64,000 nt of DNA from an uncultured Methanosarcinales archaeon. Its GTDB lineage: Archaea; Nanobdellota; Nanobdellia; Woesearchaeales; CAYMBN01. A model generated the notes under the pieces. The model saw only the letters and a program-made list of their open reading frames with translations. It ran no database searches and was not told the DNA's origin. Every line of letters starts with the position of its first letter. Within the stretch, counting starts at the first letter, position 1. Where the stretch lies: positions 76,962-140,961 of the forward strand of contig CAYMBN010000001.1 of the NCBI GenBank assembly GCA_964388715.1. Direction: 5' to 3'. Positions 7,623 through 9,131 of the stretch are shown here, piece by piece. A program made the position numbers and the translations under genes.

Positions 7623-7646
7623 CAAAATAAAATAAATTACTATTAT

Positions 7647-7807
7647 CCCTACCTAGCTCAATGGCTAGAGCGTTCGGCTGTACTGTTTCATACGGGGTCA
7701 AAGATGCGCTTTAGGACCTTATGCACAAAGCAAGGGATGATAAAGAGCCAGCCAACACCGAAAGAGAAATCCGGTAGAGGTTCCTGGTTCGAGTCCGGGG
7801 GTGGGGA
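7647..7807 (+). tRNA. tRNA-Tyr(GTA) with an anticodon-loop insertion (7683-7756) and a 15-nt intron at 43/44 (7763-7777)
   Basis: Acceptor CCCTACC/GGTGGGG with C1-G72 and A73 (archaeal Tyr identity); D arm GCTC/GAGC; anticodon stem TTCGG/CCGAA; T arm CCTGG-TTCGAGT-CCGGG. Confidence 0.9.
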
Positions 7808-8542
7808 TTAAGGAGTAGGGAAATTTTTTCCTACTTCTTTTATTATTCTTTTTCTTTGAGAATAAGTTGTGTTTGGTGGACAATATCCTAATTTTTGCCA
7901 AACTTTTATTTTTGTTATATGTTTAGGGTTTGAAAAACCTATTTGATTTAACCATTTTTTTAAGTTTCTTTTACCATTAATTTCCAGACGGTATAGAGTA
8001 AAAATACCAAAATTATTACTCTTTTTAACTTTTTGTTTATAATAAGTAATACTTACTCTATCAAGTATTTTTTGAATATCCTTAATTATTCTTTCTGAGG
8101 AAAACTCAGCTACAATTCGAGGATATGAGTGTGTTTTTCTATCTCCTTTTTTAAAACTCATACTGAAATCAGTATCTGCAAGCCCTTTAAGAAATCTTAA
8201 TGATAATAATTGATTATTAATTATATTACTTGGTATAAATGCCTTGTCTGATTTCTTACCAACTATCACACCAATATTTTCAAAGAATTCCAATAGTTTT
8301 TTAGAATGAGTGTATAATCTTGCATATTCTTCTTCGTGTTTTAGAGTAAGATTGTGATTAAAACATTTATAAAATAACGAAGTAATATACTTGAAATAAT
8401 CAACTTCTTCTATTTTATCCCCAACAATTTCAATTCTATAACTGGTTCTTTTAGATGATATATACCTACTTAAATGACCATCTCCAGTAATTATCCCACA
8501 AATTTCAGCGACTTCTGGTGTTATATTTAAATTCTTAAACAT
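7808..8542 (-). CDS. Free-standing double-motif LAGLIDADG homing-endonuclease-family protein
   Basis: Motif 1 AEICGIITGDGHL, motif 2 FLKGLADTDFS, GKKS, IGFSNPKH; no intein termini or flanking exteins. Confidence 0.88.
   Translation of the reverse strand: MFKNLNITPEVAEICGIITGDGHLSRYISSKRTSYRIEIVGDKIEEVDYFKYITSLFYKCFNHNLTLKHEEEYARLYTHSKKLLEFFENIGVIVGKKSDKAFIPSNIINNQLLSLRFLKGLADTDFSMSFKKGDRKTHSYPRIVAEFSSERIIKDIQKILDRVSITYYKQKVKKSNNFGIFTLYRLEINGKRNLKKWLNQIGFSNPKHITKIKVWQKLGYCPPNTTYSQRKRIIKEVGKNFPTP
7811..7844 (+). terminator. Hairpin plus T-tract downstream of tRNA-Tyr, embedded in the 3' end of the LAGLIDADG gene
   Basis: AGGAGTAGGGAA pairs with TTTCCTACTTCT, followed by a T-rich run. Confidence 0.5.
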
Positions 8543-8847
8543 TTTTAATCATCCTATCTGATCTTGCTGAAAATGTTTAAGCTCTTTATGTTTAAATATA
8601 TTGCCCGTACTTGTCCAGTGGGGAGTGAGGCATCTTTCTAAGCAGGGATATTTTATTTTTCTCCTCTAAAAGTGGTGAAAATCTATTGATGTCAATAATA
8701 CGCTTTAAAAGCACAACCTTTATAAATAGAGGCAATTTCCTTGCAGTAATGGTAAAAAACGACCATCTTTCTAGGCTTAAATGACTAAATTAACTATAGT
8801 CTATGCTCTTGAAAGAGAATGTTTTTTCCAGAAAATATCAGGATGAA

Positions 8848-8962
8848 GCCCTGGTAGTGTAGTGGTTATCATGAAGCCCTGTCGAGACATAGTATGTCGC
8901 AAAAAGGCTTCGACTCGGGTTCAACTAAGTCAAAAAAAACTTTGAAAGTCCCGGCCAGGGCG
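8848..8962 (+). tRNA. tRNA-Asp(GTC) with introns at 37/38 (8885-8904) and 59/60 (8926-8948)
   Basis: GCCCTGG/CCAGGGC with G73; AAGCC-CT-GTC..GGCTT anticodon arm; T-loop intron forms a complete BHB (TTCA/TGAA central helix, AC|T and AG|T bulges). Confidence 0.95.
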
Positions 8963-9011
8963 TTTCATGCTCATGACTAGGACGTTTACGTTCATGACTT
9001 GGGCGTTTCAA
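8949..9011 (+). repeat. Three degenerate ~21-nt tandem units; the first overlaps the tRNA-Asp 3' end
   Basis: tcccggccagggcgtttcatgc / tcatgactaggacgtttacgt / tcatgacttgggcgtttcaa. Confidence 0.6.
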
Positions 9012-9131
9012 GGGCCGGTAGCTCAGCCTGGTGTGGTTTGCTTTGCGCAAACTGTGGGCAACTAGAGCACATGACTTTTATGTTAACGCAAGGTTATCAT
9101 GGGGTCGAGGGTTCGAATCCCTTCCGGCCCG
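9012..9131 (+). tRNA. tRNA-Lys(TTT) with introns at 19/20 (9032-9061) and 37/38 (9081-9095)
   Basis: GGGCCGG/CCGGCCC with G73; CATGA-CT-TTT-A..TCATG; both introns fold into BHB motifs (GCCT/GGGC and CTTT/AAGG central helices). Confidence 0.95.

Follow-up and report, generated by a model that had tools for sequence, protein, structure and literature searches.

The window, that is, the whole stretch of 64,000 nucleotides that was analyzed, comes from a tiny marine archaeon and contains between positions 7647 and 9131 three tRNA genes and, set among them in convergent orientation to the first, a homing-endonuclease gene.

7647..7807, forward strand: tRNA-Tyr(GTA) gene (ARAGORN with introns allowed, script-spliced forms, and relatives; boundaries read by hand)
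7682-7701, forward strand: first insert of tRNA-Tyr, 20 nt, splitting the anticodon between GT and A at 35/36
7704-7756, forward strand: second insert of tRNA-Tyr, 53 nt, at the canonical position 37/38
~7763-7779, forward strand: third insert of tRNA-Tyr, ~15 nt, in the variable loop, with ambiguous exact boundaries
7808..8542, reverse strand: free-standing, double-motif LAGLIDADG homing-endonuclease gene, 244 aa, stop codon 7808-7810
~8471-8497, reverse strand: motif 1 of the endonuclease gene (G-I-I-T-G-D-G), read in the ORF
~8162-8194, reverse strand: motif 2 of the endonuclease gene (G-L-A-D-T-D-F), read in the ORF
residues 191-236 of the protein: C-terminal three-helix extension in the AF2 model
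8848..8962, forward strand: tRNA-Asp(GTC) gene (script-spliced forms in ARAGORN; intron-less counterparts in relatives)
~8885-8904 and ~8924-8946, forward strand: inserts of tRNA-Asp, 20 nt in the anticodon loop and 22-24 nt in the T-loop
9012..9131, forward strand: tRNA-Lys(TTT) gene (script-spliced forms in ARAGORN; counterparts in relatives)
9032 to ~9062 and ~9081-9096, forward strand: inserts of tRNA-Lys, 30-32 nt in the D-loop and 15 or 17 nt in the anticodon loop

With introns allowed, ARAGORN places tRNA-Tyr(GTA) at 7646-7808, and the gene freed of its three inserts by script was recognized by the same program without introns in 36 of 36 boundary variants; support for the first insert also comes from relatives, in which another hairpin occupies this site. 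The same procedure recognized tRNA-Asp in 36 of 108 splice variants, which are all those with a 20-nt first insert, and tRNA-Lys in 18 of 27. The tRNA-Tyr gene is single copy, no second one having been found in a search of the source genome. These results agree with the initial annotation, which had credited each of the three neighboring tRNAs with at least two short introns (three are present in tRNA-Tyr, two in tRNA-Asp, and two in tRNA-Lys). The intron-laden cluster is not special to this locus, since multi-intron tRNAs are found genome-wide; ARAGORN reports 8 tRNAs in the genome without introns allowed versus 20 with introns allowed. Nor did a link between the endonuclease and the introns of tRNA-Asp and tRNA-Lys hold up, as relatives without the nuclease at this locus carry similar ones.

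The discriminator base of tRNA-Tyr (7807) directly adjoins the stop codon of the ORF that converges on it, exactly as had been described: a double-motif LAGLIDADG gene, outside any intron, with its stop codon (7808-7810) flush on the tRNA. It is the only copy in the source genome. In Pfam, the 244-aa ORF matches LAGLIDADG_3 over residues 115-202 (E 5e-8, passing the cut-off) and LAGLIDADG_2 over residues 14-108 (E 1.7e-4, failing the cut-off). Its AF2 model (pLDDT 93.5, pTM 0.90) consists of two alpha-beta-beta-alpha-beta-beta-alpha halves, and the top Foldseek matches of this model are the TliVMA intein, I-Tsp061I, PI-PfuI, and I-DmoI (E 1.5e-11 to 4e-9); a profile of the protein run against the PDB matched intein endonucleases and I-DmoI (E 8e-13). 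The protein shares its fold and its two-motif single chain with these four enzymes, but whereas they sit in rRNA introns or inteins, the endonuclease described here stands alone, and unlike them, it has a conserved C-terminal three-helix extension and an F after the second catalytic Asp.

Among 32 aligned homologues, the catalytic residue D125 is invariant and the catalytic D21 is kept in at least 90%. The second motif had been noted for reading DTDF rather than DxDG; the reading is correct, but it is not peculiar to this gene, as DTDF is the family norm (26 of the 32 homologues, the others having DTDG in 5 cases and DTDS in 1, counted from the alignment), with D-T-D invariant. Compared with five relatives, the gene has a dN/dS of 0.09-0.22, at dS values near saturation. 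Sequence and model together show that the ORF is intact and encodes a monomeric endonuclease of two LAGLIDADG domains in which neither catalytic Asp is lost; selection on it is purifying, and cleavage activity is predicted. A maturase role had been offered as an alternative. Maturases of this kind assist the self-splicing group I introns that encode them and often lack catalytic residues; such a role is unlikely here, since the introns belong to the bulge-helix-bulge type that is spliced by proteins and neither catalytic Asp has been lost. The gene is not located within an intron, and the neighboring introns are short inserts of the splicing-endonuclease type at sites common to relatives.

Between the endonuclease gene and tRNA-Asp, four further features were recorded.

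8590..8602, reverse strand: probable TATA box of the endonuclease gene, read from the sequence, with the same spacing in 32 homologue loci
8612..8620, reverse strand: promoter-upstream motif CACTGGACA on the endonuclease-gene strand, conserved, with a second CCACT-like half just upstream
8631..8660, forward strand: probable decayed older tRNA-Tyr 3' end (a weak call), 18 nt followed by a T-run terminator
8719..8726, forward strand: TATA box of the tRNA-Asp/tRNA-Lys unit, present in relatives without the endonuclease (L122, L117, and L106)

The CACTGGACA motif has 44 matches in 22 kb upstream of homologues versus 48 in 449 kb elsewhere, and it also precedes three other genes of the source genome. 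Positions 8603-8640 were considered as a tRNA 5' half and rejected, as their core is this same motif, common to the promoters of homologues at other tRNAs and to unrelated genes. The last 8 nt of the probable leftover (acceptor strand and discriminator) match the working tRNA-Tyr of L003, and its position and length are like those of clear leftovers at other loci (L012, L025, L043, and L001); its local alignment with the window's own tRNA-Tyr is not significant, as 73 of 300 shuffles reach the score. Since the TATA box at 8719..8726 is common to endonuclease-free relatives, it marks the far edge of the inserted DNA. Empty sites are found in G031, G021, and G060, which have tRNA-Tyr and then tRNA-Asp with no endonuclease between; the spacing of the two tRNAs is 310 nt in G031 and 157 nt in G021, versus 1040 nt in the source genome. 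The comparison of syntenic loci lacking the gene, which had been suggested earlier, yielded a tRNA-Tyr/tRNA-Asp/tRNA-Lys/rpoH block that persists gene-free in relatives, and the endonuclease gene is an addition to this older block. No joint skipping the nuclease gene, and hence no nuclease-free allele, was found in contigs from four DNA runs of one study, such contigs dropping rare variants; joints within tRNA-Asp and tRNA-Lys on metagenome contigs proved to involve the tRNAs of other organisms. The sequencing runs listed as containing this DNA include no RNA run.

The endonuclease belongs to a family distributed across DPANN archaea, and each of its clades is tied to the end of a single kind of tRNA gene. 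Order-wide, 37 of 61 genomes match the family (30 of 44 when only good-quality genomes are counted), with 0-10 matches per genome, and free-standing copies with internal stops occur in G001, G005, G007, G043, G045, and G058; the distribution is patchy, several copies per genome are common, and some copies are broken. Enrichment next to tRNA genes across DPANN homologues, an expectation of the initial annotation, was found: ARAGORN places a tRNA within -100 to +40 nt of the stop codon in 39 of 80 homologue loci versus 18 of 367 other ORF ends of the same loci (Fisher p 2e-20). With our own finder added, the count at the stop rises to 51 of 80, and with six hand-read cases to 57 of 80. ARAGORN, our finder, and hand reading detected no tRNA at the stop in the remaining 23 loci, 4 of which lie upstream of rnhB while in another 4 a tRNA instead directly precedes the gene. 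The clades track the identity of the neighboring tRNA (Tyr, iMet, Thr, Cys, Phe, and Asn), with SH-aLRT supports of 100 for Thr(TGT), 99 for Cys(GCA), 98 for Phe, and 97 for Tyr; a nine-member clade with a support of 100 has iMet at the stop in 5 members (hand-read) and rnhB downstream in 4. The arrangement seen in the window recurs in several families (L001, L004, L006, and L084); the NCBI taxonomy assigned to the loci lacks the resolution, and in part the accuracy, for a test of horizontal transfer. The nuclease region is 70.5% identical in nucleotides to that of L006, close to the 66.7% of the neighboring rpoB. Prolonged vertical inheritance would account for this as readily as homing would, and a host function is another possible meaning of strong purifying selection maintained for so long.

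Beyond the gene's own promoter, the remnant of a former tRNA 3' end persists at about 13 loci. These leftovers lie just past the promoter motif and are clear in L012, L025, L043, L019, L050, L063, L066, L001, and L090; others are present in L027 and L052, with a weaker one in L029. An automated search was significant in 2 of 28 loci, the remaining leftovers having been read by eye, and the significant leftover at L013 probably belongs to another tRNA. Most leftovers begin at the T-loop, and such remaining tRNA 3' ends point to a cassette junction at or near the T-loop.

We think it probable, with some reservation, that the 3' end of the genome's only tRNA-Tyr gene is occupied by a homing-endonuclease cassette whose target is the T-arm. 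In this scenario, the enzyme would cut nuclease-free tRNA-Tyr genes in or near the T-arm, a target and cut site suggested by the junctions, and repair of the break would copy the cassette from the carrier. The cassette would consist of a substitute for the 3' part of the tRNA plus the nuclease gene, in antisense orientation, with its promoter, and the neighboring tRNA with its introns would probably be co-converted. The carrier's own tRNA might be spared through a sequence change, an intron near the site, or a split site. The insertion is presumably old in the source lineage, because the leftover is decayed and the same arrangement is found in relatives of other families.

The initial annotation had proposed that the mini-introns protect the host tRNA. 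In such collaborative homing, a mini-intron would interrupt the recognition site and protect its carrier, while the nuclease would spread the intron into uninterrupted genes. The precedent is F-CphI and the psbA group I intron of cyanophage S-PM2, for which collaborative homing was shown by cleavage assays (PMC6083498). As there, a free-standing endonuclease gene here adjoins a gene interrupted by introns, and an intron could prevent self-cleavage and become mobile; unlike there, the arrangement is deduced, applies to some loci only, and concerns enzyme-spliced mini-introns rather than a self-splicing one. We consider this explanation unlikely for the locus, even though several observations agree with it. 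At least ten working neighbors carry an intron exactly at 53/54 (L012, L025, L043, L050, L003, L005, L084, L002, L087, and L090), in line with leftovers that mostly begin at the T-loop, and where this intron is present, the leftover is almost identical to the working end (differences of 0/19 in L012, 2/18 in L025, and 3/22 in L043). Among the tRNA-Tyr genes of the order, an intron in the variable loop or at 53/54 is present in 6 of 7 nuclease-abutting genes versus 5 of 23 without the nuclease (p 0.004), the carriers among the former being close kin that reflect about two independent events.

Within the Tyr group, introns close to the junction are more frequent where the gene abuts the tRNA; over all clades the difference is not significant, a 53/54 intron being found in 7 of 28 abutting versus 3 of 33 non-abutting tRNAs (p 0.16). 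Any T-arm intron is present in 11 of 28 versus 9 of 33, also not significant, as counted in part with our intron-tolerant finder, which misses genes found by ARAGORN and may overcall interrupted T-arms; 17 of the 28 abutting tRNAs have an intact T-arm. Also against general protection of the host tRNA are nuclease-abutting tRNAs without any intron (L013, L018, L021, L022, and L056) and intron-rich genes without the nuclease: in G001, tRNA-Tyr carries this set of three introns and no endonuclease gene abuts it, and G003, G004, and G047 have T-loop introns in tRNA-Tyr and no family member. At the window itself, the T-arm of tRNA-Tyr is uninterrupted and the nearest intron lies ~8 nt from the inferred junction. 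This intact working T-arm is also at odds with the homing reading, its sparing by the enzyme being unexplained.

Two further explanations dispense with present mobility. In one, the protein has been domesticated for a host function, such as DNA binding or regulation at tRNA loci or guarding the integrity of tRNA genes, and is no longer mobile. Strong purifying selection, an arrangement kept across families with a divergence like that of rpoB, a conserved and regulated-looking promoter common to other genes of the genome, and the invariant DTDF in place of DxDG as a family trait would all suit such a role, but the patchy distribution with broken copies, the many complete genomes of the order without a copy, the conserved catalytic Asp residues, and the insertion marks left by clade-specific ties to different tRNA genes and leftover ends make it, in our judgment, improbable. 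The other explanation, a fixed and inactive relic of a past invasion that no longer cuts and is drifting, would account for the decayed leftover, the old shared insertion, and the failure to see a nuclease-free allele in the contigs of the four runs; given the low dN/dS, the intact ORF, and the conserved catalytic residues, we find it very hard to credit.

A broader proposal, which we regard as doubtful, makes free-standing LAGLIDADG cassettes the driving force behind both the gain of introns by tRNA genes and the breakup of those genes in DPANN archaea, and places the cassettes in a CACTGGACA circuit. Each nuclease lineage would cut one tRNA gene in the T-arm, and repair would copy either the nuclease or only a small intron that shields the carrier's site; the nuclease would later decay while the intron stays, so that multi-intron tRNA sets would be the fossil record of repeated invasions. 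Through a shared CACTGGACA promoter element, the cassettes would be joined with an integrase and a second LAGLIDADG gene in one regulated circuit of mobile genes.

The homing cassette that we favor has partial counterparts in known systems. SegB of T4 is a free-standing GIY-YIG homing endonuclease within the T4 tRNA gene cluster; its recognition site holds the conserved tRNA TpsiC stem-loop motif, and it drives the inheritance of its own gene and of surrounding tRNA genes (PMC2330249). The likeness lies in a free-standing nuclease gene among tRNA genes and, on the homing reading, in a T-arm target. SegB differs in being a GIY-YIG enzyme and phage-borne rather than a LAGLIDADG cassette on an archaeal chromosome, and it is not known to have flush convergent abutment to one tRNA, clade-per-tRNA diversification, leftover tRNA ends, or protein-spliced introns, which the present family has. 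In the mORFs of Allomyces and Glomus mitochondria, with the host genes atp6, atp9, cox2, and nad3, an endonuclease ORF enters the host gene together with a substitute 3' end, and the original 3' end stays behind downstream (PMC3630166). The mORFs join a protein-coding host gene in phase, whereas the host here is a tRNA and the ORF is antisense with its own promoter; the corresponding leftover is nearly decayed in the window. A mobile-element model of tRNA gene disruption was put forward for tRNA-Thr(GGU) of Caldiarchaeum subterraneum (PMC3293823). It similarly links element insertion at a tRNA gene with intron gain and a stray tRNA fragment, but the element there encodes a recombinase and leaves a 5' fragment, as opposed to a homing endonuclease and a 3' fragment. 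Our literature search, whose coverage excluded subscription journals and supplements, turned up no account of free-standing LAGLIDADG genes beside archaeal tRNA genes.

How archaeal tRNA genes came by enzyme-spliced introns at odd positions, and how they became fragmented, is a long-standing question for which there are only indirect models. For the intron question, the locus provides a concrete, cloneable candidate pair of enzyme and target, and in the family, alleles occupied by the nuclease gene or empty, and with or without introns, form natural series over at least six tRNA identities. Whether the nuclease selects for or spreads tRNA introns, and what it cuts, thereby become directly testable, and the one-tRNA-per-gene placement in relatives may help to explain the abundance of small introns in the tRNA genes of these archaea. 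The family would also offer LAGLIDADG scaffolds with related but distinct tRNA-gene specificities.

The family furthermore accounts for blanks left by standard tRNA finders and annotators at such loci. Default finders are nearly blank on the present region because introns hide the tRNA genes, with 0 tRNAs in the window from default ARAGORN and one sub-threshold tRNA match from Rfam. Introns likewise caused the miscalls of a "tRNA-His" by ARAGORN at L004 and at L006 and of a "tRNA-Asn" at 9012-9131 in the window, where the gene is tRNA-Lys(TTT).

Our data bear out the observation of the initial annotation that a LAGLIDADG gene lies against intron-bearing genes for tRNA-Tyr, tRNA-Asp, and tRNA-Lys. 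In the source genome, a 1.3-Mb, 96%-complete DPANN (Woesearchaeota-type) archaeon, the three tRNAs and the ORF are bounded by a PP-loop ATPase gene on one side and by rpoH/rpoB on the other, with a spacer of about 305 nt between ORF and tRNA-Asp:

7647-7807, + strand: tRNA-Tyr (ARAGORN, introns allowed)
7808-8542, - strand: 244-aa nuclease ORF
8590-8602: TATA box upstream of the nuclease gene
8612-8620: motif CACTGGACA, about 10 nt beyond the TATA box
8848-8962, + strand: tRNA-Asp (ARAGORN on script-spliced forms)
9012-9131, + strand: tRNA-Lys (ARAGORN on script-spliced forms)

Standard tools reported no tRNAs in the Tyr/Asp/Lys region, and tRNA-Tyr was found by ARAGORN once introns were permitted. 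When candidates were spliced by script according to their coordinates and ARAGORN was run without introns, it recognized the spliced forms of tRNA-Tyr with three inserts removed, of tRNA-Asp with two (one in the T-loop), and of tRNA-Lys with two (one in the D-loop). The first tRNA-Tyr insert, which splits the anticodon, is supported as a real intron because relatives have another hairpin at that position. This shared position and the recognition of all three spliced forms therefore establish the original observation as correct, with the qualification that multi-intron tRNAs are the rule across this genome, where ARAGORN counts 8 tRNAs when introns are disallowed versus 20 when they are allowed. 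In a relative (L133, G001:C14), a tRNA-Tyr with the same three introns as the window has acquired 13 consecutive A in its variable-loop intron. Separately, the tRNA-Asp TATA box is separated from its tRNA by a leader of ~100 nt (8740-8847) that has stretches in common with L106 and L122, both nuclease-free; this stretch is a long pre-tRNA leader or, alternatively, a small RNA.

Both halves of the 244-aa protein match Pfam LAGLIDADG families, and its NCBIfam matches are intein-bearing RFC, helicase, and RtcB models. An AlphaFold model built from 32 homologues (pLDDT 93.5) has as its top Foldseek matches the TliVMA intein endonuclease, I-Tsp061I, PI-PfuI, and I-DmoI, in agreement with a profile search of PDB sequences. 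The form of motif 2, D-T-D-F, had been a cause for concern; it is instead the family norm (26/32 homologues). Across the aligned homologues D125 never varies and at least 90% of sequences keep D21, and dN/dS against five relatives is 0.09 to 0.22, with dS close to saturation. A three-helix C-terminal extension (residues 191 to 236) is conserved, whereas I-DmoI has no counterpart of it.

A word-indexed search yielded 43 clusters of similar length to the nuclease. With each species represented by a single genome, scanning gave 101 coding places; the 80 retained come from bins labelled Woese-, Pace-, Nano-, Aenigm-, Micr-, and Iainarchaeota. ARAGORN placed a tRNA within -100 to +40 nt of the stop codon at 39 of these 80 loci, compared with 18 of 367 other ORF ends at the same loci (p 2e-20); the count rose to 51/80 with our own intron-tolerant finder added and to 57/80 with six more read by hand. 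The neighbouring tRNAs are mostly convergent: the discriminator lies 0 to 7 nt from the stop codon, or the reading frame continues into the tRNA. When 73 of the proteins were placed in a quick maximum-likelihood tree, they clustered by neighbouring tRNA, the Thr(TGT), Cys(GCA), Phe, and Tyr groups having support of 100, 99, 98, and 97, respectively; the tree also holds an Asn group and an Arg/Leu group on the other strand. In a nine-member clade (support 100), an initiator tRNA-Met read by hand lies at the stop codon in five (L033, L037, L040, L042, and L051), and the remaining four lie instead upstream of rnhB. Our literature search found no account of a tRNA-tied free-standing LAGLIDADG family.

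Three side observations concern individual loci. The initiator tRNA-Met in L033 and L051 (also L040 and L042) has at least four inserts, in the D-loop, anticodon loop, variable region, and T-loop. A well-supported subclade (L032, L034, L039, and L053) sits ~100 nt upstream of the RNase HII gene (rnhB) on the same strand, rather than beside a tRNA gene. Locus L043, catalogued as a CPR bacterium (Nomurabacteria bin), contains both a family member and a tRNA-Asn interrupted by an intron at position 53/54, and is probably a mis-binned archaeal contig.

Beyond the promoter motif, nine loci (L012, L025, L043, L019, L050, L063, L066, L001, and L090) retain a clear leftover of an old tRNA 3' end, comprising T-loop, 3' strand of the T-stem, 3' strand of the acceptor, discriminator, and T-run. 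Leftovers are shorter in L027 and L052 and weaker in L029, and in most loci they start at the T-loop. The leftover in the window (8631-8660) is weak: its place and length fit, it has an 8-nt acceptor match to the tRNA-Tyr of L003 and a T-run resembling that of L001, and it is not significant by itself. A nuclease cassette with such leftovers would have the same build as mitochondrial mobile ORFs, in which an endonuclease comes with a replacement gene end and the native end stays behind (PMC3630166). The putative target region matches that of T4 SegB, whose recognition site includes the TpsiC stem-loop motif (PMC2330249).

The initial annotation had further proposed that the mini-introns shield the carrier tRNA from the nuclease, as in collaborative homing. 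At least 10 loci have a working tRNA interrupted by an intron precisely at 53/54, the point at which the leftovers start; the leftover in three of these loci is near-identical to the working end, as would be expected of young insertions. Among same-order tRNA-Tyr genes, a variable-loop or 53/54 intron is present in 6/7 that abut the nuclease versus 5/23 that do not, but this association amounts to about two events because the carriers are kin. The window tRNA-Tyr, however, has an intact T-arm, as do 17 of 28 abutting tRNAs, a contrast to the other tRNAs of the same loci that is not significant, and five abutting tRNAs have no intron whatever. Moreover, there are cases of these introns with no nuclease: G001 carries the three-intron tRNA-Tyr of the window with a plain T-run after it and no abutting gene, on a contig that has only ~125 nt left, and tRNA-Tyr is interrupted by T-loop introns in G003, G004, and G047, genomes with no family member. 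The tRNA-Asp and tRNA-Lys introns are also found in relatives lacking the nuclease gene at the locus. Weighing these points, we therefore keep shielding as a minority reading for the window locus and as a live one for the family.

The nuclease insertion at the window locus is old. Nucleotide identity to L006, where the nuclease copy is broken, is 70.5% in the nuclease region and 66.7% in the neighbouring rpoB, about equal divergence. Either continued homing or a host role may be what preserves the intact gene. A nuclease-free tRNA-Tyr/tRNA-Asp/tRNA-Lys/rpoH block is present in G031, G021, and G060, all of which match the far part of the window spacer, including the tRNA-Asp TATA box; the Tyr-Asp distance is 1040 nt in the window versus 310 nt in G031 and 157 nt in G021. 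Genome G051 has the same arrangement as the window; G027 and L002 each have a family member upstream of tRNA-Tyr and in the same orientation. The window's genome has a single nuclease copy. Family matches occur in 37 of 61 same-order genomes, each from a different family, at 0 to 10 per genome; some sit within inteins (open frames over 800 aa), and several free-standing copies are interrupted by stops.

The motif CACTGGACA, which lies ~13 nt beyond the TATA box in homologue loci, precedes homologues in 32/80 loci (2.0 matches per kb versus 0.11 per kb elsewhere) and is itself often preceded by a second half, CCACT or CACTGG. The element lies at 8590-8622 in the window, at C2:66498, C4:21084, C21:545 and 628, and C1:215768 in the window's own genome (G000), and among loci L001-L080. 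In that genome it also precedes a tyrosine-recombinase (integrase) gene on a 5.7-kb contig, a PC4-like ssDNA-binding gene, and a second, distant LAGLIDADG-like gene that lies outside the window (C2:66578-67732). The element may serve as a binding site for a regulator of mobile or recombination genes. The second LAGLIDADG-like protein (384 aa) has a fused winged-helix-like (helix-turn-helix-like) tail, and its gene ends directly before a YchF/OLA1-type GTPase gene.
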